NCBI GenBank assembly: GCA_964545405.1
Contig: CAZJGH010000002.1
Span: forward strand, 1 to 35,444
Length of the DNA stretch: 35,444 nucleotides
Source of the DNA: an uncultured Planctomycetales bacterium
Lineage (GTDB): Bacteria > Planctomycetota > UBA1135
Direction: 5' to 3'
The notes below the pieces were generated by a model. That model was not told where the DNA came from. It saw only the letters and a list, made by a program, of their open reading frames with translations, and did not search any database. Positions 210 to 35,444 of the stretch are shown piece after piece; the stretch's first letter is position 1; each line of letters opens with the position of its first letter. A program made the position numbers and the translations under genes.

Positions 210-869
210 CTACCACTTCCATTTCTTCCATAGCTTCTTGTACTCCTTATCGCCGAGCTTCCAGCCATCGGCCCAGAGCTCGAACGTTTTATACTTCTCA
301 AGCGCTTTCTTATCGATACCTAAACTCTTAGCGGATTCATGCCACTCCTCCATCTTGGCCTGCATGTTCCATTCGAAGCCTTCGATCAAGAAGGTGTCAT
401 CGATAAGGTCGACAGTGATGGTGAATATCTCGTCTGACTTCTTCGAGTTCCACCAGACGGTGTGGATCTTCTCTGCCTTCTTCTGCTGCTTCTTCAGCAA
501 CTTGTCGTAGCCTACTTTTTCGTACCACGCCTCCACCGGGGCTACTCCACGGTAATCGTCACGAGCAGCCACCAATAAACCTAGAGGCTTATTTTTTGCG
601 AGCACCAGCTTCTTGCCGTAAGCCTTGCTCAACTCTTTCACAACTTTATCGCCCTGTTTCTCGATGGCTGCGACCAACGAAGCTGCATCCTTGGCAACAC
701 CGGGCGATACATCTTTCAAGGCACGCTCACCACCAGGCATCAAGCGCTGTGCCACCTGATAACTCAACGTAAGGGCGGGGCTGATTTCATACTGATAGGA
801 GTCGGGCCCCTTCTGCATGGCTAACTGTTGCGCCATGCGCAAAACGGTGGCCGCATCGCTGCTGGTCAT
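210..869 (-). CDS. hypothetical protein with Lys/Trp-rich C-terminus (KEYKKLWKKWKW); no family recognised
   Basis: 219-codon ORF. Its ATG overlaps the TGA of the upstream esterase gene (ATGA at 866-869). It ends at TAG 210-212, followed by GAT TAA. It looks more A/T-rich than its neighbours. Confidence 0.55.
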   Translation of the reverse strand: MTSSDAATVLRMAQQLAMQKGPDSYQYEISPALTLSYQVAQRLMPGGERALKDVSPGVAKDAASLVAAIEKQGDKVVKELSKAYGKKLVLAKNKPLGLLVAARDDYRGVAPVEAWYEKVGYDKLLKKQQKKAEKIHTVWWNSKKSDEIFTITVDLIDDTFLIEGFEWNMQAKMEEWHESAKSLGIDKKALEKYKTFELWADGWKLGDKEYKKLWKKWKW

Positions 870-1654
870 GCCTTCGCACCAATCGTGCCTTCGGTGACGC
901 GCGTTGAGTTCGGCCAGTGGTTGTAACCAGGCAGACGCAACAAGGCAACCAGATCCAAACCTTTGCCGTCCAGGTACTCGCGCCCGCCGACGGACTGGCG
1001 GTAAGGCACTACCGGATCCTTGGTGCCGTGCAGGAACAACACCGGCACGTCCTTCATCTTGCGACTGATTTCACTCCAACTCCAAACCCCACTGGCATGG
1101 GCAACCACCCCGCCGAGCATCTCTGGATGCTCTCCAGCAAAGTGCACTACGAAAAAGGAACCTTGGCTATGACCGTATAGGAAAACCTGGTCCACGGAGA
1201 ACCGCTCACGCATCTCCACCAAGAAATCGCGGAAGCTCTCGACGTCGTCTTTCTCCCCCAAGAACAAGCGCGTACCATTTGCGCCAGGGCTGGTGCCGTC
1301 GACCGAAATCAAAATATCGTTGCTACGTAGCGGATTCAGCTTCATGTGATGTTCGGTGAAGTTATTGAAATAACCCCAACGGTAATCGCCACCTGTGCCG
1401 TGCAAAATAACTGTCATTTGCCGAGGCTGCTCTGCGGAATACCCTTCCGGCAGTTGCTACATGTAGCGCAGGTCCCCTGCGGACTTACTCCAATAAGCTG
1501 TTGATGTTTTTGCAGCAGGACTTGGTGCAAGAAATTCCGGCCCGTCTTCCGCTTGAGGCGCAAAGGGCGTGAGAAGCAGTAAGGAAGCAAATAGGAGCAT
1601 TTCCCGATTAATGAAGAAAGAAAACAGAACAGCACGCAACGCGAGCCTTCGCAT
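866..1654 (-). CDS. secreted alpha/beta-hydrolase (carboxylesterase / PHB-depolymerase-like) interrupted by one in-frame TAG at 1457-1459; a pseudogene under code 11 unless TAG is read through
   Basis: ORF 1457-1654 has a signal-peptide-like N-terminus (MRRLALRAVLFSFF...LLLLTPFAPQA). ORF 866-1417 has VILHGTGGD, a GHSQG nucleophile elbow and LHGTKD. The two share one frame. The codons between TAG and the internal ATG read QLPEGYSAEQPRQ, the usual 'LP.GY....P..V.LHG' lead-in of this fold. Confidence 0.6.
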
Positions 1655-1829
1655 CTTAACCCCTGCTTCTGAAGCCGCGCTACCGAAATTTCATGATACG
1701 GGTCGCACAGTCACTATCTGGCTACAGAACGGGCCGCTTGTTGCGCGGCTCCGTGGCTGAACAACCGACCATCCACTCATGCCTTTGTCGAAAGCGACTG
1801 CAGCAGCATATAACCAGGAATTAGGTTCT

Positions 1830-3545
1830 TCACGGCTTGCTTGTCCAAACAACAGCCCCACCGAATAGCGTGATGACCGGTGCGCAGTTGCGCAACTGAT
1901 CTACCGGAACCGTCATGAGGTCGTCGGAAAAGACCACTAGGTCAGCACGGTATCCTGGAGTTAAACGACCGAGGTCGTGTTCACGGAATGCCGCGTAAGC
2001 CGGCCAGGTCGTCAGCATGTCAAGTGCCTCTTGACGCTGGAGCTGCTGCTCTGGATACCATCCACCATCAGGTTCGCCGTCGCGAGTCGCGCGAGTCACC
2101 GCCGCGATGAACAAGGCGACGGAGTCGAGTCGTTCGACCGGAGCGTCGGAACCTCCTGGGATGATGCAGCCTGCATCACGGAAGCTACGCCATGCATACG
2201 CACCGCGAACGCGTTCGGCTCCGAGTCGGTGCTCTGCCCAGGGCATATCACTGGTTTGGTGTTGCGCTTGCATCGCAGGAATAACTCCGAGAGTGGCGAA
2301 GCGTTCGAAATCGTCGGGGTGCACGACTTGTGCATGCTCGATGCGACACCGCAGGTCGAGTCCCGTCTCAGCCGAGCCCCTTGCCCCTAGTGCCTGCTCA
2401 TATACATCCAAGGCGGTCCTGTTACCGCGATCGCCGATGGCGTGAATCGCGACCTGAAAGCCAGCTTCGGCCGCATCCTTGACGATGCCATGCATGTCTT
2501 CCGGAGAAGTCAGCATCAATCCGATGTTGCCGTGGTCGTCGGAATATTCGTCGAGCAAGGCCGCGCCGCGTGAACCAAGAGCACCATCCGCATAGAGCTT
2601 CACTGACCTGATCGCGAGGGTGCCAGTAGCGCCGACGTCGGCTTGCGGGCCAGCTGCGAACCGACGTTCAAGCAGGGATGCATTCGAGCCATCGAGCATC
2701 TCATGCAGGCGCAAGCGTAAACGCCCCTCGGTCGCCATCGATTCGAGCAACGCCAGGGGGCCGGGGCCGATTCCGGCATCATGCACGGCTGTTATGCCTT
2801 GTTCATGCAAGGCCGCAGTAGCCAAACCGACTGCGCGCTCGACCGCCGCCAAAGTGGTTCCTGGCGCGGCGTTGTGTATCAGGCCCTCGGCATTATCGAC
2901 GAACACACCAGTGGGCTCGCCATCCGCATCACGCTCGATGCGGCCGCCTTCGGGATCGGGAGTCGACTTCGTGACGCCCGCAGCATCCATCGCCGCTTGA
3001 TTGGCAAGGATGGCGTGGCCGTCGATGCGCACCAGCACTACCGGACGATCTGGAATCGCGGCACTCAGATCATGATGTGTCGGGAACGACTTCTCTTGCC
3101 AATCATTCTGATCCCAACCGCGCCCCTGAATCCACTCGCCGGCAGGCAACTCCTCATGACGCTGTCGTGCCAACTCGACCACCTGCTGATATGAAGTAGT
3201 ACCGACCAGATCCAGCCCTTCAAGCGCGCTACCCAAACCTACAAGGTGGGCGTGTCCATCGGCGAAGCCTGGATACACCGGGCGCCCCTCCAAGTCGACC
3301 TTGGTCGTACCTTCCGCTGCCAAGGCCAATATCGCATCGCCTTCGCCGACGGCAAGAACGCGTCCATCAAGTATCGCGATGGCTTCGACGATGCGCTGTG
3401 GTTCATCCTGGGTGTATATGCGCCCGTTAAACAGCACCACGTCGGGAGGTGTGTCGGGTGTGGCATCGCCACCGCAGGATCCGAGAGCAGAAGTGAGGAC
3501 AAGCATCAAGAGGGTGCTCTTCAACATGAAGTATGATGGCAGCAT
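1830..3545 (-). CDS. amidohydrolase-3 family metal-dependent hydrolase (YtcJ-like), probable lipoprotein
   Basis: 571-codon ORF ending TGA. It has a GFADGHAHL metal-binding H-x-H motif and later HAIGD and GSDAP motifs. The N-terminus MLKSTLLMLVLTSALGSCGG has an L-G-S-C lipobox, so the true start is probably the ATG at 3525-3527 rather than 3543-3545. Confidence 0.8.
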   Translation of the reverse strand: MLPSYFMLKSTLLMLVLTSALGSCGGDATPDTPPDVVLFNGRIYTQDEPQRIVEAIAILDGRVLAVGEGDAILALAAEGTTKVDLEGRPVYPGFADGHAHLVGLGSALEGLDLVGTTSYQQVVELARQRHEELPAGEWIQGRGWDQNDWQEKSFPTHHDLSAAIPDRPVVLVRIDGHAILANQAAMDAAGVTKSTPDPEGGRIERDADGEPTGVFVDNAEGLIHNAAPGTTLAAVERAVGLATAALHEQGITAVHDAGIGPGPLALLESMATEGRLRLRLHEMLDGSNASLLERRFAAGPQADVGATGTLAIRSVKLYADGALGSRGAALLDEYSDDHGNIGLMLTSPEDMHGIVKDAAEAGFQVAIHAIGDRGNRTALDVYEQALGARGSAETGLDLRCRIEHAQVVHPDDFERFATLGVIPAMQAQHQTSDMPWAEHRLGAERVRGAYAWRSFRDAGCIIPGGSDAPVERLDSVALFIAAVTRATRDGEPDGGWYPEQQLQRQEALDMLTTWPAYAAFREHDLGRLTPGYRADLVVFSDDLMTVPVDQLRNCAPVITLFGGAVVWTSKP

Positions 3546-4737
3546 GTCATCCTTCTCTCAATACCTGTTCGTCGTTGCTGCCCTGGCGGCCACCAGCGTC
3601 ACCGCTGGAGCCCAGGAGCCGATTGAGGAGGCAGTCCCCGCGGCACCGCTCATTCAGCCTGGAGAACGTGCTGTCCCTGCACAGCCTGGAATGCGCGCAG
3701 TACCCGCGATGCCACTCATGCAGCCTGCGCAGACCAATGACGCCAGCGCCATCTCAGCCGATGCCGCGGCTTACGCTGGACTCAAGGCCGAATACGACTA
3801 GGTCTATTCCGCTTGGGTCAGCGAGATCATCGCCCTCGGCAAGCAAGAAGGGTTCGCAGGACCTTACCCGGAGGACCCTACCGGTGGTTTCTACCCAAGG
3901 TTCCGCACGGTTGCAGATACTGGCAACATCGATGCACGACTGTGGTGCCTGAAGAACTTCCACTACGACCCGACTCCGAGCAAGTATCGGAAACTCTGTT
4001 GGCAGGGTGAAGCCTTCAGCTTGGCCACCGCGTTGCGCGATGACGCCGATGGCAGTGCCAGACTGAGGCAGTCACTCCATTCGGGCCGAATGGTCGGCGG
4101 CGACAGGACCGTGGATAAGGTCCTGGTCTATATCCAGGAAACGACGGGGAGTGATGATGTGCGTCGCGCGACGATGGCCGCCCGCAGTGAACCCATGCTT
4201 GATCCGAATACCGAGTCGTTCCATGTAGGTCTCGAATTGGCAGAGGAAGTGATCGCTACTTGGCCAGACAGCGACGAGGCCGCACGCCTTGAAGGTCTGC
4301 TCAATGCACAGGACAACCTGAAGGTCGGTGGGACTCCTGCCGACTTCACTGGCACCGACGTCGATGGCAAGGAGATCAGTCTCTACGACTATCGTGGCAA
4401 GGTGGTGATCGTCGACTTCTGGGGCTTCTGGTGAGGCCCTTGCAAAGGTGAGCTCCCTCACCTCAAGGCGCTGGTCGAGCGCCACTCTGCAGAAGACTTC
4501 GCGATCCTTGGTATCAACACTGACGGAGACAAGGACAAGTTCCGTAAGGACTGTGAGAAGTTCGGTGTGACCTGGGACAACATCTTCAACGGCTCTACGC
4601 GTGGTGGTGTGCCAGGCGCTTGGGGCGTGACCGGATACCCGACCATGTACATCCTCGATCGTGATGGGGTCATCCGCTACATTGATGCTCGTGGGGAACG
4701 CCTGGAGAAGGTCGTCGATGGGCTCGTCGCCGAATAA
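3544..4737 (+). CDS. secreted TlpA/ResA-like thioredoxin-fold thiol:disulfide oxidoreductase. The frame contains an in-frame TAG (3799-3801) and an in-frame TGA (4432-4434) at the first Cys position of CxxC (candidate selenocysteine)
   Basis: One frame reads MSSFSQYLFVVAALAATSVTAGAQEP (signal peptide) ...LKAEYD-TAG-VYSAWVSEIIALGKQ...GKVVIVDFWGFW-TGA-GPCKGELPHLKAL...ILGINTDGD...GYPTMYILDRDGVIRYIDARG... up to TAA 4735-4737. No ATG/GTG/TTG lies in frame between 3802 and 4020, although that stretch has coding-like GC3. The ORF-track pieces are 3301-3801 and 4021-4434. Confidence 0.65.
4438..4468 (+). promoter_or_regulatory. stem-loop immediately 3' of the in-frame TGA; candidate bacterial SECIS element
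   Basis: CCTTG-caaa-GGTGAG-ctcc-CTCACC-t-CAAGG. That is a 6 bp perfect upper stem (4447-4452 / 4457-4462) and a 5 bp lower stem (4438-4442 / 4464-4468). The apical loop lies about 20 nt after the TGA. The CUCC loop lacks the G usual in bSECIS loops. Confidence 0.4.
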
Positions 4738-4924
4738 GAGGGGCTCCTTCCTCGTGAACGGTGTGATCGCCGCGGTTGTCCTGTTCTACGTCCTGCGCTT
4801 GAGTGCTGGCGACCGTCACCTGATCGACTGGATCGTGATCGCCCTAGTAAGTAGCGCGATCCTCTACAACGTGGTCAAGTTCGGCATGGCCCTTCAAGGC
4901 GCGGGCACCAGCGAAGAAGAGTAG
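4718..4924 (+). CDS. small two-helix membrane protein, hypothetical
   Basis: ATG 4718 gives MGSSPNKRGSFLVNGVIAAVVLFYVLRL...WIVIALVSSAILYNVV... with two hydrophobic spans and strong GC3 bias. It overlaps the 3' end of the TlpA-like gene by 20 nt and ends at TAG 4922-4924. Confidence 0.45.
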   Translation: MGSSPNKRGSFLVNGVIAAVVLFYVLRLSAGDRHLIDWIVIALVSSAILYNVVKFGMALQGAGTSEEE

Positions 4925-4925
4925 C

Positions 4926-6050
4926 TCAACTGGTGTGCTTCAACCCGACGCCACGTGCGGACAGGTGATCGAGAACCCTCTGAAGAAGTCCTGGTACGCG
5001 GCCGACGACTTCGCCTGGAGACACGCCAGCTTGGCTCCAACTGCCATCGATAATCAGTTCAGCAGCTGCAGTGCATGTATAGCCGGTGGTCCTTGCCATC
5101 GACGAGGTGCCGGTGACTTGGTCAGTGCGGTCATCCAGATGCCAAACATGCCGCACTGATTCGCCGTCCTCGATGCCTTCGATCGTGACTCGCATCACGG
5201 TCAACTCAGGTTCCCCTGGCTGCAGCTTCCAGCTGTCGAGCAAGACGCTCGAAGTCAGTTCACGTGGACTGACCTGCTTGCCGCCGACATCCACTGGCTT
5301 GTCATCAAGGAAGCCAGCCGCACGCAGGGCCAGCATCAGGTCGCGATGGCCCGGGTAACGCAGGGTCTTCTCGACCATGTCCGGGACATGCGGCATGGTG
5401 CGGATCAAGCTGCGCAAGCCATCGGTATTGAATGCCTCCAAGGTTCCGATGCCTTCGAACTCCACGAACTCCGGTTCGGACAGCGCCGGCTTCACGACTT
5501 CCTGACCATTGTGCACCATCCTTGCTGGTCGCAGGTATTCCTCGATCACGTCAAGTGGCGAGAATGGTGCCTTGTACTGGAACGGCATGTCCCGCTGGAT
5601 CGGCAAGCCCCCCACCAGGCACTCGAATCGCTGCACCTGCATCTGACTATCGTGCCAGCCGAAGATCAAGCCATCCAACCCAGGTGCGACACCGATGTCA
5701 GTGATGACGACTGCGCCGGTCTGCTTCGCCAGTGAATCAAGATCCAATGACTCCTCCGGGAAGAAGGAGATATCGGCGACTTTCTTGCCCGCTTCAACCA
5801 GGGTGCGCAGGGTCTGGAAGCCGAGAAAGCCTGGTACAGCGGAAATCACCAGGTCGGCATCAGCGACTGCAGCGGTGACGGCGCCCTTGTCGCGACAATC
5901 CAAGGCCCCGGTCGCGACGTTTTCTACACCGTCGAATTTATCAAGTGCTAGGTCACTGAAGTCAGTGGCGATCACCTGATGACGTTGCGCCAAGTCCAGG
6001 ACAATGGCGCTGCCGACCATGCCGGCACCCAAGACCAGGACCCGTGCCAC
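4926..6050 (-). CDS. saccharopine dehydrogenase-family NAD(P)-binding oxidoreductase
   Basis: 374 codons with a GTG start. The N-terminal Rossmann motif is VLVLGAGMVGSAIVLDL. Length and C-terminal half are typical of Sacchrp_dh N+C domain proteins. Ends TGA. Confidence 0.65.
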   Translation of the reverse strand: MARVLVLGAGMVGSAIVLDLAQRHQVIATDFSDLALDKFDGVENVATGALDCRDKGAVTAAVADADLVISAVPGFLGFQTLRTLVEAGKKVADISFFPEESLDLDSLAKQTGAVVITDIGVAPGLDGLIFGWHDSQMQVQRFECLVGGLPIQRDMPFQYKAPFSPLDVIEEYLRPARMVHNGQEVVKPALSEPEFVEFEGIGTLEAFNTDGLRSLIRTMPHVPDMVEKTLRYPGHRDLMLALRAAGFLDDKPVDVGGKQVSPRELTSSVLLDSWKLQPGEPELTVMRVTIEGIEDGESVRHVWHLDDRTDQVTGTSSMARTTGYTCTAAAELIIDGSWSQAGVSPGEVVGRVPGLLQRVLDHLSARGVGLKHTS

Positions 6051-6053
6051 TGC

Positions 6054-7208
6054 CTATTGCCAGGTCAGCCGCACGAAACGCGGCCGATAGATGTCCGCGT
6101 AGGTGAAGTGATCCCAGAACTCGAAGGTATTGGCGTTGTAACTGATCAACAACTCACCTGGTTCCGACAGGTGCGGATGCGCCTTGGCGTTGTAGGTGTA
6201 GACGTCGGCGATCGGTGGAGTCGGGATGTCGTAGATGACCTCGGTGTTGCCGAACGGCCCCCACGGAGTCGGGGCGATCTTCATGCCGATCTTGCCGGAC
6301 ATGGTGTCGAGCGAGAAGATGCAGGCGTAACGCCCATCTGGCATCGGCGTGACCGACAGCTCGTTGGAGATGCGCCCAGTCAAGGTTGCGCTGTCGTTGA
6401 TGTCGACGGACCAACCGTTGCCATCCCAATACTTCCAGGCATTGAAGTTCTCGAAGTTCTGCGGCAAGACCCGCGCGACCATCAGCTTCTTGACCTGATC
6501 CTCCAGTGAACCGTAGACATAGACGTAACCATCTGGAGCTGGTGCACCGGCCTCGACGGTATTGGCCATGATGCCGGCGCCGAAGAAGCCGGCGCTACGG
6601 GTAGGAGTCTCGAGCAAGGCGAGTGGGGTATCGACTTCAGTCGCTGCCGCGCGCGTGTACGGGCCATTCTTGTCCATGGTGAACAAGGTCATCCCGGCGC
6701 GTCCGAAGTTCCATCCAGGAGGGCCGTTATTGTGCTCCATGCGGTTGGCCAGCAGGTGGAACTTGTCTCCGATCACGACGCCATCCGAGAACCAGTACCA
6801 ATCACCGGATTGCGATAGCGGTGTGTTGGGCGTGAAGATCGATGCAGGCTGAGCACCGTGATCGTCCCAGAAGAAACTCACACCTTCGTTCAGGCCGTCC
6901 TTCGCCATGAAGCCCATGGTGTTGTTGACCATGCTGGTGTTGACTCGGCCACCGGCCGCATTGACGTCACCGATGAAGGTATCACTGAACGCGAACAGGG
7001 TACCGGCGCGACTCAAGCCACCAGGGCTATCGTTGCCATCCATCGGGAAGGAGAAGATGCCGTCGGCACCAGTCCATCCTGAAGTGGTGTCGAACAAACT
7101 GGTCCATTCCGGAGCAGGAGCCGTGGTGTAGCTGCTCTGAGCCGACGCCGAGACCGCGATCGACATGAGCGCTAGTGAGGGGAGGAGGTATCTATAAACG
7201 CACAACAT
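6054..7208 (-). CDS. secreted glycoside-hydrolase-like beta-propeller protein (DUF4185-like)
   Basis: Signal peptide MLCVYRYLLPSLALMSIAVSASAQS. Motifs GWTGADGIFS, FSDTFIGDV, WYWFSDGVV and a C-terminal ISYNANT...YRPRFVRL recall DUF4185 proteins (memory only). The start overlaps the hutI end by 17 nt. Ends at TAG 6054-6056. Confidence 0.55.
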   Translation of the reverse strand: MLCVYRYLLPSLALMSIAVSASAQSSYTTAPAPEWTSLFDTTSGWTGADGIFSFPMDGNDSPGGLSRAGTLFAFSDTFIGDVNAAGGRVNTSMVNNTMGFMAKDGLNEGVSFFWDDHGAQPASIFTPNTPLSQSGDWYWFSDGVVIGDKFHLLANRMEHNNGPPGWNFGRAGMTLFTMDKNGPYTRAAATEVDTPLALLETPTRSAGFFGAGIMANTVEAGAPAPDGYVYVYGSLEDQVKKLMVARVLPQNFENFNAWKYWDGNGWSVDINDSATLTGRISNELSVTPMPDGRYACIFSLDTMSGKIGMKIAPTPWGPFGNTEVIYDIPTPPIADVYTYNAKAHPHLSEPGELLISYNANTFEFWDHFTYADIYRPRFVRLTWQ

Positions 7209-21693: not shown

Positions 21694-22011
21694 TTACAGA
21701 TCCTGTGGACGCAGAGTCTTGCGGCCGTTCTTGGTTGGGCGGTTGTCAGCAGCCTTGATTGGATCGCGTACGTATGCGTCGAGTGCGCCGTAGAAGTCGC
21801 CGGAAACGTTGCACTTGGCAACAGCGTTCTTGGTGCGGCTCTTGGAAATGATCAGCTCAGTGATCTTGGCCTTCTTGGACTTGCCCTTCTTGGCGCCTTT
21901 CTTGGCAGCCTTCTTAGGAGCGGCCTTCTTCTTAGTGGCCTTCTTCTTAGGAGCAGCCTTCTTGGTGGCCTTCTTGGTTACTTTCTTAGCAGCTTTCTTT
22001 TTGGCAGCCAT
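21694..22011 (-). CDS. histone-fold DNA-binding protein (bacterial alpha3-truncated / DUF1931-like fold) with ~45-aa Lys/Ala-rich H1-like N-terminal tail
   Basis: The ATG at 22009-22011 gives MAAKKKAAKKVTKKATKKAAPKKKATKKKAAPKKAAKKGAKKGKSKKAK, then ITELIISKSRTKNAVAKCNVSGDFYGALDAYVRDPIKAADNRPTKNGRKTLRPQDL and TAA. The NGRKT-x4-DL end matches the histone L2/alpha3 signature GRKT(I/V)xxxD(I/L). The rest of the 443-aa ORF (to 23025) is antisense shadow. Confidence 0.7.
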   Translation of the reverse strand: MAAKKKAAKKVTKKATKKAAPKKKATKKKAAPKKAAKKGAKKGKSKKAKITELIISKSRTKNAVAKCNVSGDFYGALDAYVRDPIKAADNRPTKNGRKTLRPQDL

Positions 22012-22103
22012 GATGTTTTTGTGGTTTGATGTTGGCGTTTCCGCAAGAGGCGGAAACGGAGGAAAGTGGTGAAAGAACGGCGTATTCGCCATTCCCTGCG
22101 CGG

Positions 22104-22188: not shown

Positions 22189-23304
22189 GTGATTATCCAC
22201 GCCACCCTCCTCATTGCCATTCTCCAGGGCAGTGCTGAACTCCCACAGGACCAACAAGAAGTGGTCTTGTCGGAGCAGGACCAGAATATTCTGCGACGTT
22301 TCGACTCCCTGCCGGAAGAAGAACAGCAACGAATCGCCATCGAGCTGCAGGAAGCAGTTCTCGAGTTGGAACATCCGCTGTGCGATGCCGCGCGGTCCTT
22401 GCTCAATGACCGCAAATTGCGTAATGCAGAGCAACAGCGCAAGGGCGACCTGCAGGTCTACTCGCCACAGGAATATGCGCCGAAGTTGAAGCTTCGCACC
22501 AAGACCCTGAAGCCCACCAGCAAGACCTGGAAGACCTTCGAGAAACGATATTTTCGCAATGGTCTCGCTGACCGGAGCGCTTCCTGGGACTGGGATTACG
22601 GGCGCAATCTGCTGCTTAAGCCTGGAATTCGACAGCCGAGGGATGTCGTCATCGATTTCCTGGCAGGCCGCTGGCCACAAGATGGCAAGGTCGCTGCCTA
22701 TGCCGAAGGTGCCCTTGACCGTGACAAGGACATGGATGCAGCAGCTGATTATTTCGCCCATGCCTACCGGGACAGGGATGGCAAGGTCTACCAACAGATA
22801 CCTCTTTATGAGATCTGGAATGCGCAGACGACCTTCGGCATCTCCGATGTCGAATCCATCGCATTCATGCGCAATGTCGCCGATGACGACCGTTATGTAT
22901 CGCCGATTCCCGGCAAGTTCCATGACCGCATCTACGCTCAGATCGAGGAACGATTCGAGATCTACCGCGACTATCGGAGCCTGCGCTTCGCGATCGCACA
23001 GAGGTTCGTCGCACCCACCGGCCAACTACCTGTGCAGTTTCGAGGAATCAGCGAGACCATCGACAAGGCTTGGGTGCTGATGGAACACAAGCCACGGCGC
23101 ATGGCTGCATTCCTCGAACGCCATCCGACTCGCAAGCTTTTCCTGTCAGCCCTCGCCGAGGAGATGCCAGCAAAGGGCAAGGAAGGTGAGCTCGCCCACT
23201 GGGCCGAACACCAGGAAGCCCGCGCCACGCTGCCAGGCATCATGCGCGGTGCAGCGCTTGAGTTCCTCGCCGACGAGGGGCTGCTTGGTTTCCGGCGTAG
23301 ATAG
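22189..23304 (+). CDS. hypothetical protein, 371 aa, no family recognised
   Basis: GTG start. Strong GC3 bias in this frame, unlike the overlapping minus-strand ORF. Balanced composition with W/Y-rich motifs (SWDWDYGRN, DYFAHAYRDRDGKVY). Ends at TAG 23302-23304. Confidence 0.6.
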   Translation: MIIHATLLIAILQGSAELPQDQQEVVLSEQDQNILRRFDSLPEEEQQRIAIELQEAVLELEHPLCDAARSLLNDRKLRNAEQQRKGDLQVYSPQEYAPKLKLRTKTLKPTSKTWKTFEKRYFRNGLADRSASWDWDYGRNLLLKPGIRQPRDVVIDFLAGRWPQDGKVAAYAEGALDRDKDMDAAADYFAHAYRDRDGKVYQQIPLYEIWNAQTTFGISDVESIAFMRNVADDDRYVSPIPGKFHDRIYAQIEERFEIYRDYRSLRFAIAQRFVAPTGQLPVQFRGISETIDKAWVLMEHKPRRMAAFLERHPTRKLFLSALAEEMPAKGKEGELAHWAEHQEARATLPGIMRGAALEFLADEGLLGFRRR

Positions 23305-23319: not shown

Positions 23320-24486
23320 TTGGATTCACAACACCGCGCCTGGGCGGAGATCGATCTCGGAGCTTTCCGCCGTAACCTCAAGCGGGTCCGCTTGCAGGCC
23401 GGAAAGGCTTCGGTCTGGCCGGTACTGAAGGCCAACGCCTACGGCCATGGGGCGGTCGCCATCGCCCGTACCTGCGCGGAAGAAGGGGTCGAACGTTTAG
23501 GGGTCGGTGATAGCAGTGAAGCAATGCAACTGCGTTACAGCGGCGTAGATCTGCCCTTGCTCGTGCTTGGAACCGTGATCGACGCTGAAGTTCCCTACCT
23601 TCTTGAGCATGAGGTTGAAGTTGGGGTCCATTCGGAAAGCCGGGTCCACAAGCTGGGAACCTTGGCGCGTGAACACGGCAAGGTACTAGGTGTGCACTTG
23701 AAGGTCGATACAGGTCTCGGAAGGCTTGGTGTACGACCTGAAGCTGTTCTCAGGGTCGCGCGTGCGATCGCTGCCGAACCTGGCCTGCAGTTACGTGGGT
23801 TGATGACCCATTTCGCCAACAGCCAAGGGGCACGCAGTGGCTACACCGATGGCCAGCAGGCATTGTTCCTGGCAGCTGCAGCTGAAGTCAGCGATGCACT
23901 CGGTCAACGCCCGACCCTGCATTGTTCAAACTCAGCCGCATTGTTCACCGGGCTACACCCGGTCGGCGACGCTGTGCGCCCAGGGATATCCTTGTTTGGG
24001 ATTCAGCCGCAGGATATCGGCGGCGACGCTGGTCTAGAGCCGGTGTTGTAGCTTCGCACCCAGATCGTCTTCATCAAGGACGTACCGACCGGCACTCCGA
24101 TCGGCTACGACGGGAGATGGACTTCGCATCTGCCCACCACTCGCGTGGCAACCCTTCCGATTGGCTACAACGATGGCGTGCCTTATCGGATCGGCTTGGG
24201 CGGCAACGGCCAGGTATTGGTACGCGGACAAAGATGTCCGTTGATCGGGGCTGTTTCGATGGACTATTGCACCGTCGACATCTCTCATGTCACTGACGCC
24301 GACATCGGCGACGTCGTGACCCTGATCGGAGCGGATGGGCGCGAGCGCCTTAGCGCCTGCGATGTGGCTCGTGTCGCTGGCACTATCCCATACGAGATCA
24401 CCTGCCGCCTAGGATCCCGCGTGAAGCGCTGTTATCTGGAAGAAAGTCCCAACCGCACCTCGCCTTCACCCGTCATTCCAACATGA
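23320..24486 (+). CDS. alr: alanine racemase interrupted by one in-frame TAG at 24049-24051; a pseudogene under code 11 unless TAG is read through
   Basis: The N-terminal barrel carries WAEIDLGAF and the PLP-lysine motif VLKANAYGHGA. After LEPVL-TAG the same frame continues LRTQIVFIKDVPTGTPIGYDGRW...ATLPIGYNDGVPYR...GAVSMDY, which is the C-terminal beta domain. TTG start. The TGA overlaps the next ATG (ATGA). Confidence 0.8.
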
Positions 24487-29140: not shown

Positions 29141-29562
29141 TCGGCAGGACGCTGGCAGTCGACTATGGCTTGAAGCGCACAGGCCTGGCGGTCTGTGATG
29201 CGCTCGGCATCGCTGCCCATCCGATCGAAGCAATCGTCTCCACCAGTCTCGATGAGACCGTAGGTGCGATCGTCGCACTGGTATCCGAACGTGAGGTGAA
29301 ACGAGTCGTCGTCGGCATGCCATACCTACCTGATGGCCGCGAGGGCGAGCAGGTCAAGAACGTCTTCGTCTTCCTTGATGCCCTACGTGCCAAGTTGCCT
29401 GAAGGCGTGGCCCTCACCCATCAAGACGAGCGCCACACCACCAAGGAAGCTCGTGTCCTGTTGCGCGAGACCGGTCTGCGCGGCAAGAAGGCCAAGGCAA
29501 AGTTGGATAGCGTCGCTGCAACGGTAATCCTGAGGCAGTTCCTGGAAGAACACTCAGATTAG
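29137..29562 (+). CDS. ruvX: YqgF/RuvX putative pre-16S rRNA nuclease (Holliday junction resolvase-like)
   Basis: TLAVDYGLKRTGLAVCD N-terminus and DERHTTKEA motif. 141 codons. TTG start. Ends at TAG 29560-29562. Confidence 0.8.
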   Translation: MIGRTLAVDYGLKRTGLAVCDALGIAAHPIEAIVSTSLDETVGAIVALVSEREVKRVVVGMPYLPDGREGEQVKNVFVFLDALRAKLPEGVALTHQDERHTTKEARVLLRETGLRGKKAKAKLDSVAATVILRQFLEEHSD

Positions 29563-29620
29563 GGCAGCCTGCACCCGTTTGCCTAGGCACACGGAATACG
29601 AAGCTTGACTACAATATGCT

Positions 29621-29985
29621 TGAGTGTCGTCTGGGCGGCCGCGGGTGGTTTCGTGCCACACGAGGAAAGTCCGGGCTCCATAGGGCGCGATGGTGGCTAA
29701 CTGCCACCGAAGGAAACTTCAGGGAAAGTGCCACAGAAAGCAAACCGCCTAAGCGTTTCGGCGCCGGTAAGGGTGAAAGGGTGAGGTAAGAGCTCACCGC
29801 GCGCTTGGTGACAAGCGTGGCAGGGTAAACCCCATCTGGAGAAAGTTCATGTAGGGAGGATAGGTGCGGCCCGCATCGCTTGAACCTCCGGGTAGAACGT
29901 TCGAGGCCTGTGGCAACGCAGGCCCTAGAGAAATGGTCGCTGCCTTTTCGAAGGTACAAGATCCGGCTTATAGGACGACACTCAC
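29621..29985 (+). ncRNA. rnpB: RNase P RNA, bacterial type A
   Basis: P1 pairing GAGTGTCGTC (29622-29631) with GACGACACTC (29975-29984). Universal P4 strands GAGGAAAGTCCGGGCTCC (29662-29679) and ACAAGATCCGGCTTATAGG. Also ACAGAAAGCAAACCGCC, GGTAAGGGTGAAAGGGTGAGGTAAGAGCTCACC and GGGTAAACCCCA. TACAAT at 29610-29615 is a possible -10 element, and a T5 run follows the 3' end. Confidence 0.95.
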
Positions 29986-30150
29986 TTTTTCTCCGACAGA
30001 CGCGGCAACTATTGCATCAGCCTAAGCCACTCGCGTTGACCATCAACATGACACCACAATATCTTGTGCCCAAAATGCAGTCCTAGTTTTCAACAATTCC
30101 CCAACATCTGGTAGTTTTCACTTGCCAGAATCCCAAATATCGGCAGAATC

Positions 30151-30795
30151 GTGTCAGTCATGGAGTTCGTCTGGGTCGTACCACGTCAAATCCTCTTCCC
30201 CGAGGCCACCCCCCATGGGCTGATTGCCCTTGAGCCAAAGGAATTGGAGGATCGTTTCCTCGCGCCGGCCCGCGAGTCTGGCTTCTTCATTGAACGCCGT
30301 TATGCCGAGTCCCACCCTGAGTACAAGCAGCCGATTCCTTATGTGGCTGTCTGTCGAGGCGACTCGGTGCTGTGCCTGACGCGCCTTTCCACCCAAGGGG
30401 AGCAGAGATTGCACGGCAAGCGTTCGATTGGGGTCGGTGGTCACATCAATCCGTGTGACCTTGATGATGGCGACCTGTTCGCCAGCGCCTGCTCACGCGA
30501 GCTGCATGAGGAATTAGTCCTGCCAGAGGTTCAGCTCCCGCTGACACCGATCGGCCTGCTTAACGACGACACCACTGCCGTGGGTGCGGTGCATGTCGGC
30601 CTGGTCTACCGCCTCGATGCCTCCGACATCGAAGTGGACATTCGCGAAACATCAGCGATGGCCGGCGACTTCGAGTCGCTTGCTTCCCTCCGCGATCTCG
30701 CTGCTACGCCCGAGTCTCCCTTCGAGACTTGGTCCACCCTGCTGCTCCGCTCAGGCGCCCTTGACTTCTCCGAAGAAGTCGTGGTCAACGCCTGA
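30151..30795 (+). CDS. Nudix-like hydrolase-fold protein (degenerate Nudix box)
   Basis: GVGGHINPCDLDDGDLFASACSRELHEELVL approximates GX5EX7REUXEEXGU. 214 codons, starting at GTG 30151 or ATG 30160. Ends TGA. Confidence 0.5.
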   Translation: MSVMEFVWVVPRQILFPEATPHGLIALEPKELEDRFLAPARESGFFIERRYAESHPEYKQPIPYVAVCRGDSVLCLTRLSTQGEQRLHGKRSIGVGGHINPCDLDDGDLFASACSRELHEELVLPEVQLPLTPIGLLNDDTTAVGAVHVGLVYRLDASDIEVDIRETSAMAGDFESLASLRDLAATPESPFETWSTLLLRSGALDFSEEVVVNA

Positions 30796-30835
30796 GGCAA
30801 AAACTAGCTAAACGTTTCCCCAAAAAAAATAAAAC

Positions 30836-31063
30836 ATGGTTCGTCCAGTACCAGAGTCCGAACTTCCTGAGCCTTCAGAGCTCTCCTCCCGCCTAAAGGA
30901 AGGCATGAGTAAATACTCCGTGCGTCTACGCTTTCGCGATGGACGCGAAGAGCAAGGGGCAATCACATTCGTTGAGCGCCTTGGTCGTGGACGAATCATT
31001 GACATCGAACGTGAATTCGCGATGGACTTCTCCATCGCCGATCTAGATTCGATTGAGTACTAG
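30836..31063 (+). CDS. small hypothetical protein (75 aa)
   Basis: ATG-initiated ORF with coding-like composition. No family recognised. Ends at TAG 31061-31063. Confidence 0.35.
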   Translation: MVRPVPESELPEPSELSSRLKEGMSKYSVRLRFRDGREEQGAITFVERLGRGRIIDIEREFAMDFSIADLDSIEY

Positions 31064-31083
31064 ATATCACGGGTAGGCGACTC

Positions 31084-32721
31084 CTACTCGACAGGCACGG
31101 CAACCACGTTGGACACGAAGTCTATGGGGTTGCCGAGCACGAACGCGAAGTGAAACGTGCGGCCTACCATACTGCTCGCCAAGGGGCCGAGAGTATCTCC
31201 GGTCACCGTCGCGTTGCCAGCTGAATCCAGTTGGCCTGAAAAGCCGACCAAGCCAGGCATCCCGGCGTTCACGCGCGTGTGCCTTGACACAGAATCCCAG
31301 TTGAGCGGCAGTAACATCCCCCCTGGCAGTACAGTTCCAGGACTAGTCCCAGAGATGGTGCCGTACAGGGCATAGTCGCGACCGGCATTGGACTGACCGC
31401 AGACCAAGTTGAAGGTCAAGCTGCCGCCGACCGCAGCGGTAATCGAAGCATCACCGGGCCATAGAGACCTTTCATAGCGTCGAACTTTGAATACTGCGTT
31501 CTGAGAGGGGTTCGGCAGCTGGTTAGTCCAGGTCCAGACCGTATTACCCTGGTCATCAACCTCGAAAATACGTCCACTGGTCCCCTCGCAGATGAGGGTG
31601 TTGCCATTGGCCATGCGTTCCGTACCGGAAATATGGTCGCCGTAGAAACTCGTCAGCGGTGACCCGAAGTAAGTCCAGGTCAGATTAGTCGGACCGAAAG
31701 CGGCACCGGGGGTGAGTGAATAGTTGCCGAGTGCATCTACTGGTGGAGTGAACTCATCTATCGAAGACCAGTTTCCGGTCGGGCGACCTGGACCGTTATT
31801 GAACACCAACAAGTTGCCGCCGCCTGGAAGATCCGCATCGATCCACTGGATGTCATGCTGACTGAACAGCATCTGGTCAGCAGCGGAACCGCGGTCATAA
31901 GCAGCAGGGTTACCCCAGCGATAGAGCAGGTCGCCACCTTTGCCGGAATTACCGCCGCTATGAGATGCAGCTTCGGCAGTGGTGGTGGAGTGGTCGATTA
32001 TCCAGATCTCTGAAAGAGCACGGGAACTCAAGACGATCTGATCGAACTGTTCGTTGTAATCGATGGTGTTGAGATGAATCCAATCGCCATTGCGCGGGAT
32101 CGAATAAGGAAAGTTCAGGTCCACCAGCTGAGGATTATCAGCCACCACTCCGTGGTTTGGTTTCCCTGCATCGAAGTCCTGCACGATGTGATCCCACAGG
32201 TGCCACTCCCAAACGATGGTACCGGTCGATGGCTCGACTTCCATGACCATCTCAGACCAGAACACGCTGCCCGACGTGACTATCGGATCGCGCCCGGCTG
32301 CAAGCGCACCCGAATAGGACATGTCTTCCCAGGCGATCATCAGGATGTTGCCGTTCGGTAACTCCTCGACATCGTGGTGAAGCAAGTGATCATCTGAGGC
32401 ATAAGTGAAATCCCATATCTCAGTACCATCCCACGCCAACTCATGGACTCCGCCGCCGCCGCCACCGAGATTGCTCGCGGCAAAATTCCCATGACGATAA
32501 GTGCGCAAGAGATTGCCGTTCTCCATCAAGTAGACCGCTTGGCCAGGGCGAGCAGTATCAGCCCAAGTGTGGGCGATATTCTGACTGCCATCCAGGAGAT
32601 AAGTGCTGGTTGAGTTGGATGGGGCGAATAACGTCAACCCCTCTTGCGGGCTTGCCTGGGGGCTCGCGGCGACGAGCGGGGCGAGGAGAAAGAGTAAAAA
32701 CATGGTTGGTGAGACCAACAC
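31084..32721 (-). CDS. secreted arylsulfotransferase (ASST)-like beta-propeller protein
   Basis: Signal peptide MFLLFLLAPLVAASPQA. LMENGNLL, HHDVEELPNGNILMIAWE, WIHLNTIDYN and NTLICEG motifs are typical of the ASST family. Ends at TAG 31084-31086. Confidence 0.65.
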   Translation of the reverse strand: MLVSPTMFLLFLLAPLVAASPQASPQEGLTLFAPSNSTSTYLLDGSQNIAHTWADTARPGQAVYLMENGNLLRTYRHGNFAASNLGGGGGGVHELAWDGTEIWDFTYASDDHLLHHDVEELPNGNILMIAWEDMSYSGALAAGRDPIVTSGSVFWSEMVMEVEPSTGTIVWEWHLWDHIVQDFDAGKPNHGVVADNPQLVDLNFPYSIPRNGDWIHLNTIDYNEQFDQIVLSSRALSEIWIIDHSTTTAEAASHSGGNSGKGGDLLYRWGNPAAYDRGSAADQMLFSQHDIQWIDADLPGGGNLLVFNNGPGRPTGNWSSIDEFTPPVDALGNYSLTPGAAFGPTNLTWTYFGSPLTSFYGDHISGTERMANGNTLICEGTSGRIFEVDDQGNTVWTWTNQLPNPSQNAVFKVRRYERSLWPGDASITAAVGGSLTFNLVCGQSNAGRDYALYGTISGTSPGTVLPGGMLLPLNWDSVSRHTRVNAGMPGLVGFSGQLDSAGNATVTGDTLGPLASSMVGRTFHFAFVLGNPIDFVSNVVAVPVE

Positions 32722-32757
32722 TAAGTTAACCGATTGGTTCTGGAGCGCCAGTCGGCC

Positions 32758-33552
32758 CTAATCGATCAAGGCAGTGTTGCCACTGAAAACCCTAGCGCTG
32801 GAGTCCCTTATCCAGCCTATCAGGCAAATCCCAGCAGCATCGGCGGTTTCTACCGCAAGCGAAGTTGGCATGCCTATGCCGGCCACCAAGGGAATGCCCG
32901 CCAACCAGGCCTTCTGCACCAGTTCAAAGCTGATTCTCCCGCTCAACAACAACCCAAGGGGATTGTTCAGGGGGTATTTGTCGGCCAACAGACGGGCACC
33001 CAGCAGCTTATCGACGGAGTTGTGCCGTCCGACGTCTTCTGCGACATCAAGCAGATCGCTGCCAGCGGTGTAATCCCAAATAGCCGCCCCATGACATCCA
33101 GCAGTCTTGGCGAAGAGTGGTTGCCGCTGTCCAAGTTGATCGACCGCCGCGAGCAATGACTCAAGGCTAAGGCTGTCGGGTGCTGGTGCAGCGAGCGGAG
33201 GGCAATCCTTGTGAAGCTCTGAAATCGACTGGGTACCGCAAATGCCGCAAGCGGATGTGCCTGGACTAAGGCGTGGCGACAGACTGATGCCCTCTGCCAA
33301 AGCCGCGTTGACGATATTGTCAGCGGGATTGCCAGTCTGCGGATCAGCACATACATCCAATGCCAGTAGGTCGTCGCGATTATGGACCAAACCTTCGGCG
33401 CACAGGAAACCGGCTACCAGATCTCGATCACGCCCTGGTGTCCGCATCAGGACGGCGTAGGAGGTACCTCGAACCCTGATTTCCAAGGGCTCTTCGACGG
33501 CAAAGGCTAGCTGGGGCAAGTAGGAGTCAGACATTCCCTTCGCCAAGACCAT
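32758..33552 (-). CDS. fdhD: formate dehydrogenase accessory sulfurtransferase FdhD
   Basis: Active-site loop GTSACGICG and the VGRHNSVDKLLG motif. 264 codons. Ends at TAG 32758-32760. Confidence 0.85.
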   Translation of the reverse strand: MVLAKGMSDSYLPQLAFAVEEPLEIRVRGTSYAVLMRTPGRDRDLVAGFLCAEGLVHNRDDLLALDVCADPQTGNPADNIVNAALAEGISLSPRLSPGTSACGICGTQSISELHKDCPPLAAPAPDSLSLESLLAAVDQLGQRQPLFAKTAGCHGAAIWDYTAGSDLLDVAEDVGRHNSVDKLLGARLLADKYPLNNPLGLLLSGRISFELVQKAWLAGIPLVAGIGMPTSLAVETADAAGICLIGWIRDSSARVFSGNTALID

Positions 33553-33617
33553 GCCACAAAAGGGAGAGCGGTCCGGTGGACCTAACCACCGGACCGCTAT
33601 TTGAACCCATGCGCCTA

Positions 33618-33962
33618 CTAGCGCAGAAAGGTGGCGTAGTCGGCTTCATCGAAACCAAGAATCGCCTTTTCACCGCGTGCCAGCAATGGGCGGCGGATCA
33701 TGTCAGGATTGGCTCGCAGAAGATCGACGACCTCTTTCTTGGTCTTGAAGGTGGCACTCTCGATCGAGTGCTCCTTGTAACCTTTCGCACGCTTGTTGAA
33801 AGCGCCTTTGGGGTCTTGTGCGTCGACTGCTTTTTCTAGGAGCTTCTTGGCGGGAGGACTTTTCATAATGTCCAGGACCTCGAAAGAAACATCCTTCTTT
33901 TCCAGGTACTTGACTGCCTTTAGGCAAGACTTGCACTTGGGCTTGATGTAGAGCTTAACCAC
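33618..33962 (-). CDS. ArsC/Spx/MgsR-family protein (CxxC)
   Basis: GTG start. VKLYIKPKCKSCLKAVKYLEKKDVSFEVLDI...LLRANPDMIRRPLLARGEKAILGF matches the ArsC-family layout with an N-terminal CKSC. Ends in tandem TAG TAG (33615-33620). Confidence 0.7.
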   Translation of the reverse strand: MVKLYIKPKCKSCLKAVKYLEKKDVSFEVLDIMKSPPAKKLLEKAVDAQDPKGAFNKRAKGYKEHSIESATFKTKKEVVDLLRANPDMIRRPLLARGEKAILGFDEADYATFLR

Positions 33963-34092
33963 GCTGTTTCCAGTATTGAGTTTCAGGCGGGTGCCATCTT
34001 GCCTTCAAAAAAGGCAGCGGCTCGCCGCGGTAGCCAGACAGTTTACCCAGAATTGGCAAATTCGACAAGACTATATTTTTGCCTCAGGATAG

Positions 34093-34116
34093 AAAAAAAA
34101 ACGCCTGCAAATAGGC
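34093..34116 (-). terminator. weak candidate intrinsic terminator after the pseudo-receiver gene
   Basis: The minus strand reads GCCT-atttgc-AGGC followed by T9 (A-run 34093-34101 on the plus strand). The stem is only 4 bp. Confidence 0.3.
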
Positions 34117-34127
34117 CTGAAAGACCC

Positions 34128-34538
34128 TTATTTGTTGTCTTCAAGGGCTGAGAAACCCTGCAACAACCTAACCAGATTCGAGGCGAATCTTGAGCGCGGA
34201 ACCACGTCAACGCCAAGTGCCGCAGCTCCAGAGATCAGCTCTTCCTTCTCGTGCGAGCAGAAGGCCATCAAAGTCCAACTGTTGGTTCGCTCATCAGCAA
34301 GCAGTGCTGGTAGAACCGCCAAGGCATCGAAATCTTCCTCCTCGAGCTCGATGACCAGACCGAGGGTAGTTGCCTGCAGGATCCGTTCTTGGAAGTCAGC
34401 AATGTCATCGCCTACATCAAGCACCACGGCATCATGGCCGACCGCGTTCAGGGTCGTGCAAATGCGGTTCCGGAAGAAATCTTCCGAAACAAGGACCACA
34501 ACAGGTGGGCCTAGGCTCTCAAGGGGTTCATCTGTCAT
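34128..34538 (-). CDS. stand-alone receiver-like (pseudo-receiver) domain protein
   Basis: CheY-like pattern VVVLVSEDFF...GLVIELEEED...LMAFCSH...VVPRS, with Glu where the phospho-accepting Asp is expected and no conserved K-P. Lies downstream of the hybrid kinase. Ends TAA. Confidence 0.4.
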   Translation of the reverse strand: MTDEPLESLGPPVVVLVSEDFFRNRICTTLNAVGHDAVVLDVGDDIADFQERILQATTLGLVIELEEEDFDALAVLPALLADERTNSWTLMAFCSHEKEELISGAAALGVDVVPRSRFASNLVRLLQGFSALEDNK

Positions 34539-34616
34539 CTCTGATGAAGGAGGTTACTCCGGTACAATCGGCCCAAAGTTCCCTCGCGTAAACCTCGATT
34601 GGAGAAAACCTTGCAA

Positions 34617-35444
34617 CTAAGCAAGAACCGAAGCCAGGACCTTCTGCAGTTGGCTGAGAGTGTATGGCTTGGCTACGAACGCGGCAAAATCGACGTCTCC
34701 GAGTCGGCTTGTAACGTCTTGAGCTGAGTAGCCGCTCGTCATCACTACCGGTACAGAGAGGCTGATGCCCTGCAGGTGCCGCAGGGTCTCCTCTCCATCC
34801 ATATTCGGCATAGTCAGGTCGAGAAGGACCAGACTGAGCTCGTGGTGATTATTCCTGTACAACTCGATCGCCTCCCCTCCATCTGAGGCAGGGATGATGT
34901 CGAAGCCGAGCCGGTTGAGCATCTCAGCAGCCAGTGCCAGGACCGTTGGATCGTCGTCGACCAGCAGCACCTTGCCACCGCTGTCCAGGACATTAGGCGC
35001 AGGTGTTTTCGACGGCTCCTCCGCAGGCACTGTTTCAGCTCTGGGGGCGGTCGGGGCGGTCGGGAAAAGCACCTGAAACATGGATCCCCTTCCAGGAGTA
35101 GTATCGATTGATATCCCACCCTTACAGGACCGAATAATCCCCAATAGCGAGGCTAGTCCTAACCCCCTGCCGGTGAACTTGGTGGAGAAGAATGGATCGT
35201 AGATTCGTTCGAGGACATCCTCGGTCATGCCACAACCGTCATCCTTGACCCTGAGGAAGATGTAATCGCCGGCCACTGGAACGTCGAGTCCATAACGACT
35301 CATGCCAGGTTCAGAATGCTGGACCCCAGTCGTGACCAGGACCTGTCCACCGCCTTGCTCCTCAACCGCCTCCGAGGCATTGACGATCAGGTTCATGATG
35401 ACCTGCCTGACCTGAGTCGGGTCACCCTCGCATGGCGGGAGGTC
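34617..35444 (-). CDS. hybrid sensor histidine kinase, C-terminal part (HATPase_c + receiver); N-terminus lies outside the window
   Basis: N box NLIVNASEA, G1 DDGCGM, FDPFFSTK, and G2 GRGLGLA. Then the receiver domain VLLVDDD...LVLLDLTMPNMDG...VVMTSGY...AKPY. The frame stays open to the window edge. Ends at TAG 34617-34619. Confidence 0.85.
   Translation of the reverse strand, partial: DLPPCEGDPTQVRQVIMNLIVNASEAVEEQGGGQVLVTTGVQHSEPGMSRYGLDVPVAGDYIFLRVKDDGCGMTEDVLERIYDPFFSTKFTGRGLGLASLLGIIRSCKGGISIDTTPGRGSMFQVLFPTAPTAPRAETVPAEEPSKTPAPNVLDSGGKVLLVDDDPTVLALAAEMLNRLGFDIIPASDGGEAIELYRNNHHELSLVLLDLTMPNMDGEETLRHLQGISLSVPVVMTSGYSAQDVTSRLGDVDFAAFVAKPYTLSQLQKVLASVLA

Follow-up and report, generated by a model that had tools for sequence, protein, structure and literature searches.

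In bacteria with amber suppression or ambiguous decoding, such as supD- and supE-type strains and the pyrrolysine (Pyl)-decoding Acetohalobium, TAG serves as a terminator and also occurs in frame. A different kind of recoding is found in bacterial thioredoxin-fold (AhpC/TSA, TlpA-like) selenoproteins of the U-x-x-C type. Metagenome-assembled genomes (MAGs), in turn, contain nonsense and frameshift lesions that represent low-coverage consensus errors or strain-specific pseudogenes. The window analysed here, a 35,444-nucleotide stretch of one MAG contig, comes from an uncultured marine Planctomycetota bacterium and resembles the first group in that TAG is used as a terminator and also lies in frame within genes. 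However, these in-frame TAGs are not conserved, do not correspond to a single residue and do not lie in methyltransferase genes, one of them demonstrably alternates with a sense codon between contigs, and no suppressor or pyl genes are present within the 35 kb examined. The resemblance to MAG lesions is closer. The TAGs are isolated and unconserved, with a sense allele in near-identical contigs, they are grouped with other damaging substitutions and adjoin a contig break, and one affected gene is also frameshifted. Nothing distinguishes them from such lesions, the only oddity being that three of the four lesions fall inside a 4.8-kb stretch without a counterpart in any other assembly. We conclude that the three internal TAGs are probably contig-specific loss-of-function lesions, unrelated to one another, in an organism for which TAG is an ordinary stop. 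The features discussed are listed in the table.

Features of the window discussed in the text (positions in nucleotides from the first letter of the window).
Feature	Position	Strand	Description
Esterase gene, broken	210..1654	-	alpha/beta hydrolase plus ~200-aa C-terminal domain; TAG and frameshift
1-nt deletion, frameshift	882..886	-	GAA GGC AC- GAT TGG in the window; TE-A-I-D-W in homologues
In-frame TAG at conserved Trp	1457..1459	-	LRY[MIV]-W in homologues; G-to-A change
TlpA/AhpC-TSA-like secreted thiol-disulfide oxidoreductase, predicted selenoprotein gene	3526..4737	+	Pfam AhpC-TSA/Redoxin match
In-frame TAG, TlpA-like gene	3799..3801	+	non-catalytic N-terminal region
TGA, predicted selenocysteine codon	4432..4434	+	FWGFW-U-GPC, first Cys of CxxC motif
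Hairpin, likely bacterial SECIS	4446..4463	+	begins 12 nt past the UGA
Second cluster, four contig-specific substitutions	21732..21762	-	histone-fold gene 21694-22092; Ala>Pro twice, Glu>Lys, Glu>Asp
Alanine racemase gene alr	23320..24486	+	both Pfam domains complete; one in-frame TAG at codon 244
Three contig-specific substitutions	24036..24054	+	24036 C>A, 24050 C>A, 24054 G>T; cluster of 19 nt

The window encodes about 30 proteins, whose genes end in TGA (13), TAG (10) or TAA (7). The initial annotation had tallied TGA 15, TAG 11 and TAA 7 for 33 coding sequences; it was right that TAG is a common terminator, and its totals were too high because gene fragments had been counted separately. 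An ORF at 29609-29959 on the minus strand overlaps the RNase P RNA and was left out of the count as spurious. The Pfam profiles of the TAG-terminated HutI, RuvX, FdhD and ArsC proteins are covered to their last positions, so that these proteins have normal C-termini, as had been proposed for HutI. Of five relatives checked, four end the DUF4185 orthologue in TAG and one in TAA. The ArsC gene ends in tandem TAG TAG as first described, with two rather than three further in-frame TAGs downstream, both inside a terminator-like hairpin. Three other TAGs, at 6054 (between the DUF4185 and saccharopine dehydrogenase genes), 23302 (between a 371-aa hypothetical gene at 22189-23304 and alr) and 32758 (between FdhD and an arylsulfotransferase), were considered as internal codons and rejected, each being flanked by complete, unrelated genes that happen to share a frame; at 6054, the only one of the three junctions so compared, the genes are not in frame in relatives. 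These TAGs are true terminators. Apart from the three interrupted genes, the remaining ~27 genes of the window are full length.

A simple reassignment of TAG had already been rejected on first reading and that judgement holds: under reassignment few genes or none should terminate in TAG, whereas here it closes 10 of the ~30 genes, with profile-complete C-termini. The same gene ends bear on the proposal that TAG is partly read through, by means of an amber suppressor tRNA(CUA) or a weak RF1, with the three interrupted genes still yielding full-length protein. The tandem stop of ArsC speaks for this proposal. Against it, a third of the genes end in TAG, and in three of these (at 6054, 23302 and 32758) the frame continues into the following gene and no second stop intervenes.

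As first reported, in-frame TAGs interrupt an esterase gene, a TlpA-like gene and alr (24049-24051, plus strand), and the bases that follow them are C, G and C. All three internal stops are TAG, with no TAA and no TGA other than at the selenocysteine site, and, the frameshift of the esterase aside, the three genes have their full length; both observations are compatible with readthrough. However, codon usage accounts for the uniformity. Computed from the codons of the window, 53.5% of single-base nonsense changes yield TAG, which gives a probability of 0.15 that three of three do so, within chance expectation. The reason is that TAG-adjacent codons are abundant in the codon usage of this 59% GC sequence (GAG 406, AAG 297, TTG 261, CAG 210, TGG 164 and TCG 125).

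The clearest of the three cases is alr. The middle substitution of the 19-nt cluster (24050 C>A) converts the invariant Ser codon TCG to TAG. Two contigs from other samples, L001 (JGI 3300009008) and L171 (ENA SAMN10231914), are 99.87-99.92% identical to the window where they overlap it and read C, C and G at 24036, 24050 and 24054, that is, TCG at the codon in question. Sense alleles had been named beforehand as counting against recoding, and one is present here, at the only site open to such a check. A further intact copy of 388 aa is on record (P0191), Ser244 is invariant in 30 orthologues (51-100% identity, all ~388 aa), and every relative has an intact alr. Apart from this contig, the TAG haplotype is recorded in a single place: L087, a 1,161-nt scaffold of SAMN10231913 that terminates 17 nt past the TAG. 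The two assemblies probably share the same reads, and the occurrence of the haplotype in both means that some reads do carry TAG. Taken together, the intact copies, the three transversions within 19 nt and the break in L087 make it likely that the alr TAG is an artefact or a minor allele: the change of TCG to TAG, within a small patch of transversions and at the point where a second assembly of the same sample stops, would be an error of the consensus or an allele that is rare and specific to the sample.

This patch is not the only one. Across the 23.7 kb of independent coverage, the window differs from near-identical contigs at nine positions (five missense, one nonsense and three synonymous). 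Seven of them are packed into two clusters, one of 19 nt and one of 31 nt, and eight are transversions. The second cluster lies in a histone-fold gene. At three of its four altered positions the residues of L001 agree with the PDB homologue 9f2c_A, and two of the missense changes place prolines in a histone-fold helix where that homologue has Ala, which indicates that the cluster reflects local sequence quality. Error spread evenly along the contig does not suffice, however. A uniform rate of 3.8e-4 per nt, taken from the independently covered part, predicts ~0.4 nonsense codons per window (P(≥3) ~0.007) as against the three present, and a uniform random-error model on its own was therefore rejected; the explanation has to join local error with real decay. 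The first 4.8 kb, which no independent contig covers, contain the frameshift as well as two of the TAGs, and this excess requires that the sequence is poorer there or that genes are truly decaying. No exact protein match is on record for the 210-869 ORF, for the DUF4185 protein or for the amidohydrolase translated from either of two possible starts, and homology searches for near-identical copies gave at best 70% identity for the esterase and 60% for the N-terminus of the TlpA-like protein. Scans of metagenomes and GTDB genomes with the amidohydrolase recovered relatives of at most 74% identity, which were used for synteny and orthologues and not for alleles.

The esterase gene carries two lesions. 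Its TAG replaces a Trp found in six of the six homologues inspected, encoded by TGG in the nearest relative. The window had been described as free of frameshifts over about 35 kb and its interrupted genes as otherwise intact, but neither statement holds for the esterase, in which a single nucleotide is missing near 882-886. In tblastn the 454-aa homologue P0002 aligns as two HSPs in different frames (1546-887 and 881-231), and intact homologues of 454-459 aa span both pieces. Since one homologue runs across both frames, the 210-869 ORF, whose end does read TAG GAT TAA as noted earlier, is the C-terminal half of the esterase gene and not a gene of its own. The orthologue of the nearest relative has been frameshifted independently, in the same way in six contigs, and in the relatives found through the amidohydrolase scans the esterase does not occur in synteny. 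Since the gene is disabled twice over and its homologues are intact, the balance tips slightly towards a real pseudogene: the gene may be decaying through two independent events, a change of TGG to TAG and the 1-nt deletion. A frameshift in one of the three genes also speaks against readthrough. The suggestion that C-to-T type damage (CAG or TGG to TAG) produced the internal stops fits the esterase site alone, where the change is G-to-A; in alr it is C-to-A.

In the TlpA-like gene the TAG occupies a variable position, with Ala in six closer homologues and Lys, Thr or Arg in three more distant ones. Full-length orthologues are available from L002/L089 (63% identity) and L090; the codon is GCC in the two orthologues read as DNA, and neither L002 nor L090 has TAG in this gene. 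No near-identical copy of the region is on record. A single nonsense change would account for this site, and the chances that it is an error or a real mutation appear to us about even.

The same gene contains the only internal TGA of the window, which the initial annotation correctly placed at a selenocysteine-type position. It is a separate feature from the TAG question. The TGA stands for the first Cys of a CxxC motif and is conserved in orthologues, among them those of L002 and L090; all nine database homologues end exactly at FWGFW, that is, they are cut at the UGA. Over the 66 nt after the UGA, which include the hairpin, only one or two positions differ among three genomes whose proteins are ~60% identical. 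With a redox Cys position, a conserved UGA and a SECIS-like hairpin, the codon is, as far as can be read from the DNA, a genuine and conserved selenocysteine codon. It matches described thioredoxin-fold selenoproteins in that UGA takes the place of the first CxxC Cys throughout the family and in the hairpin that begins 12 nt downstream within an extremely conserved nucleotide stretch, and the family members found here all belong to uncultured Planctomycetota.

An organism that recodes UGA as selenocysteine in this very gene might be thought to read TAG as a non-standard residue as well, either pyrrolysine or selenocysteine inserted at UAG. We regard this as extremely improbable. The interrupted genes encode an esterase, a TlpA-like redoxin and alanine racemase, none of them a methylamine methyltransferase, and Pfam scans of the window ORFs found no MtmB, MtbB, MttB or Pyl families. 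The TAGs align to Ser, Trp and Ala rather than to Cys or selenocysteine positions, they are unconserved in orthologues in contrast to the UGA, and they lack a hairpin comparable to the one that follows it.

Readthrough by suppression fares little better. The residues found in homologues at the three sites (invariant Ser in alr, conserved Trp in the esterase and variable Ala, Lys, Thr or Arg in the TlpA-like gene) do not point to one consistent amino acid, as reassignment would require. TAG is kept in orthologues at none of the three sites, alr being TCG in L001 and L171 and the TlpA-like orthologues having no TAG, and no in-frame TAG was found in ~20 orthologous genes of at least four related MAGs. 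The 100 nt after each TAG fold like shuffled sequences (z -0.86, -0.85 and -0.26) and show no readthrough-stimulating structure. Scans of the window and of 12 related loci found no tRNA genes, a result that is uninformative on suppressors elsewhere in the genome, and the literature on TAG recoding in Planctomycetota and on the sample accessions yielded nothing relevant. With the sense allele of alr, these observations leave the context-dependent leakiness or suppressor put forward in the initial annotation unsupported, and we consider readthrough of the three genes very unlikely. Even less probable is a strain in which a weak amber suppressor or attenuated RF1 tolerates TAG nonsense codons and lets them accumulate preferentially while TAG still ends most genes; if true, ambiguous decoding of TAG would then occur naturally in a bacterium without involvement of the Pyl system.

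The evidence supports instead the two other options raised at the outset, error and decay. Whether a given lesion is an error or a real mutation we infer from its surroundings, and the answer may differ from gene to gene. It is conceivable, if unlikely, that none of the four lesions is an error and that the three TAGs, like the frameshift, have become fixed in a viable strain with a degenerating genome, for example through relaxed selection or in a hypermutator lineage, so that the three genes are genuine pseudogenes. The esterase, with its two lesions and the independent frameshift of its nearest orthologue, would fit such a genome, as would the excess of lesions over a uniform error rate and the presence of the alr TAG haplotype in two assemblies. 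On the other side, the Ser of alr is invariant and the gene is intact in all relatives and in the near-identical contigs of other samples, ~27 other genes are full length, and the tight clustering, the eight transversions among nine differences and the helix-breaking Ala-to-Pro changes are unusual for natural variants at 99.9% identity. Unrelated, contig-specific defects thus remain the explanation that we prefer.

Unrelated defects in a genome that otherwise reads TAG as a stop make the finding an ordinary one; the organism uses the standard bacterial code with selenocysteine at UGA. Natural context-dependent readthrough of TAG in a free-living bacterium would, if real, be a notable finding about the genetic code, and the evidence here is against it. 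The lesson is one of data quality: a single MAG contig can hold nonsense and frameshift lesions that mimic recoding, and the mimicry is quickly exposed by near-identical contigs from other samples and by the residues of homologues at each site. What genuine recoding looks like is illustrated by the selenocysteine UGA of the same TlpA-like gene, which is conserved, occupies a functional position and has a conserved hairpin downstream.

All three in-frame TAG codons described in the initial annotation were found, in the esterase, the TlpA-like gene and the alanine racemase (alr) gene, and recounting the bases immediately 3' of them again gave C, G and C. The window (35,444 nt, ~59% GC) carries about 30 protein genes and one RNase P RNA; a 116-aa ORF opposite the latter (29609-29959, minus strand) is spurious. 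TAG is indeed a common terminator: the gene map gives terminal stops of TGA 13, TAG 10 and TAA 7, where the earlier tally, with gene fragments counted separately, was 15/11/7 for 33 CDS. Its role as a true terminator is confirmed by HutI, RuvX, FdhD and ArsC, TAG-ended genes whose Pfam matches extend to the very end of the profile. A perfect GC-rich, terminator-like inverted repeat, GCGGTCCGGTGG ... CCACCGGACCGC (33570-33617, minus strand), lies just past the ArsC TAG TAG and contains the extra in-frame TAGs previously listed after this gene.

Features bearing on stop-codon use in the window
Feature	Position	Strand	Remarks
Alpha/beta-hydrolase esterase, in-frame TAG	1457-1459	-	
TlpA/AhpC-TSA-like gene	3526-4737	+	
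TlpA/AhpC-TSA-like gene, in-frame TAG	3799-3801	+	
TlpA/AhpC-TSA-like gene, internal TGA	4432-4434		Sec-type position
7-bp hairpin	4446-4463	+	12 nt downstream of UGA, inside conserved 66 nt
TAG junction, no second stop	6054		DUF4185, then saccharopine dehydrogenase
TAG junction, no second stop	23302		371-aa hypothetical gene (22189-23304), then alr
Alanine racemase, in-frame TAG	24049-24051	+	third position of C-terminal domain's Pfam match
RNase P RNA, bacterial class A	29623-29986	+	298 bits
TAG junction, no second stop	32758		FdhD, then arylsulfotransferase

The observation was largely correct but incomplete, and the statement that about 35 kb contain no frameshifts was wrong. Homologues of the esterase (454-459 aa) align with 1546-887 in one frame and with 881-231 in another; therefore, the 210-869 ORF is not a separate gene but encodes the C-terminal half of the esterase. 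At the frameshift site, 570 nt downstream of the TAG, the DNA reads GAA GGC AC- GAT TGG against T-E-A-I-D-W in the homologues. The TAG aligns with Trp in all six homologues inspected, encoded by TGG in the nearest relative (a change of G to A). The orthologue of that relative (about 70% identity; locus L169, 6001-7397) is itself split, by a separate 1-nt deletion within a G run that directly follows the catalytic motif GHSQG. Six contigs of independent assemblies show exactly this split, and so decay of the gene seems to be under way independently in related lineages. In a third relative (protein P0031) the esterase looks truncated, judged from the protein sequence alone. The two lesions found here, and the independent ones in relatives, suggest that the gene is dispensable and in decay, and we lean towards regarding the window copy as a real pseudogene.

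Several contigs of other metagenome assemblies (JGI 3300008954 and 3300009008; ENA assemblies of SAMN10231912, SAMN10231913 and SAMN10231914) match parts of the window at 99.87-100% identity. Because those of SAMN10231913 show 100% identity in every case, the window contig is most likely a product of the reads of that sample. Contig L001 (JGI 3300009008; 10,094 nt) shows 8 differences from the window (99.92% identity) and has TCG (Ser) at the alr TAG codon, alr being called as an intact 388-aa protein. Here the TAG sits in a 19-nt stretch that holds three differences (24036 C>A, 24050 C>A and 24054 G>T); L171, a contig of SAMN10231914, agrees with L001 in carrying C, C, G at these positions, and P0191 is an additional intact copy. 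The TAG haplotype is otherwise on record only in L087, a scaffold of 1161 nt from SAMN10231913, which breaks off 17 nt past the TAG. All 30 orthologues compared, each about 388 aa long and 51-100% identical, have Ser at this position (Ser244), and both Pfam domains of the window copy are complete despite the TAG. L001 and L171 both stop at exactly 24557, within a YhdP-like gene, which may reflect a recurrent assembly break (strain variation or a repeat) or reads common to both.

Over the 23.7 kb covered by contigs of other samples there are nine window-specific differences (five missense, one nonsense and three synonymous), of which eight are transversions and seven fall within two clusters, 24036-24054 and 21732-21762. 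Both synonymous changes in alr give Leu codons that are less used (CTA and CTT). The second cluster introduces four substitutions into a histone-fold gene (two Ala-to-Pro changes, one Glu-to-Lys and one Glu-to-Asp), and at three of these positions the L001 residue is that of the PDB homologue 9f2c_A. This clustered, transversion-rich and selection-blind pattern appears to resemble local consensus errors rather than natural variation between 99.9%-identical genomes, and the alr TAG is probably an artefact or a minor allele. The histone-fold gene (21694-22092, minus strand) encodes a small protein whose Lys/Ala-rich N-terminal tail resembles histone H1 and precedes a histone-fold-like C-terminal domain; there is a match to 9f2c_A (E = 6e-4) and a weak one to histone H2A, and the protein may be a bacterial histone.

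At a uniform error rate of 3.8e-4 per nt, only ~0.4 nonsense codons would be expected in the whole window, with P(3 or more) ~0.007. The first 4.8 kb, which hold two TAGs and the frameshift, are the one part of the window without coverage by another assembly; this stretch either is locally poor sequence or carries real decay. The TlpA-like TAG, in the non-catalytic N-terminal region, aligns with Ala in the six closer homologues (codon GCC in both orthologues examined at the DNA level) and with Lys, Thr or Arg in the three more distant ones. No orthologue compared has a stop at this position and the searched collections hold no near-identical copy of the region; sequence error and real mutation are both considered, neither being preferred. 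For the lesions as a whole we favour a mixture of an artefact or minor allele in alr and a real esterase pseudogene.

The proposal that TAG is leaky in this organism is unsupported, and genuine amber suppression is very improbable. The internal TAGs correspond to three different residues and are conserved in no orthologue, one (alr) is polymorphic with a sense codon, and another lies in a gene, the esterase, that is also frameshifted. The relatives in which gene order is conserved are MAGs of uncultured marine Planctomycetota (60-87% amino-acid identity); some 20 orthologous genes, compared in at least four related MAGs, lack in-frame TAG, and the DUF4185 gene ends in TAG in four of the five relatives checked. 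Folds of the 100 nt after each TAG have z-scores of -0.26 to -0.86, and the window contains no tRNA gene. That all three stops are TAG is compatible with chance, since 53.5% of single-base nonsense changes give TAG at this codon usage and P is therefore 0.15. Three TAG-ended genes share their frame with the gene that follows, which would be risky under readthrough; at the one junction checked, 6054, the frame is not kept in relatives, and so these arrangements are probably chance. Error or decay, the other reading offered initially, is supported.

The internal TGA, by contrast, is a genuine selenocysteine (Sec) codon, as its Sec-type position had suggested. The gene belongs to a TlpA/AhpC-TSA-like selenoprotein family (FWGFW-U-GPC) of uncultured Planctomycetota; all nine database homologues end exactly at FWGFW, where gene callers stop at UGA, and the TGA is kept in the relatives' loci L002 and L090. 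Although the proteins of the window, L002 and L090 are about 60% identical, the 66 nt that follow the UGA vary at only 1-2 positions, and the conserved hairpin region is likely a bacterial SECIS. The TAG finding as a whole is ordinary: the Sec TGA shows the marks of real recoding in this lineage, whereas the TAG sites show none of them.
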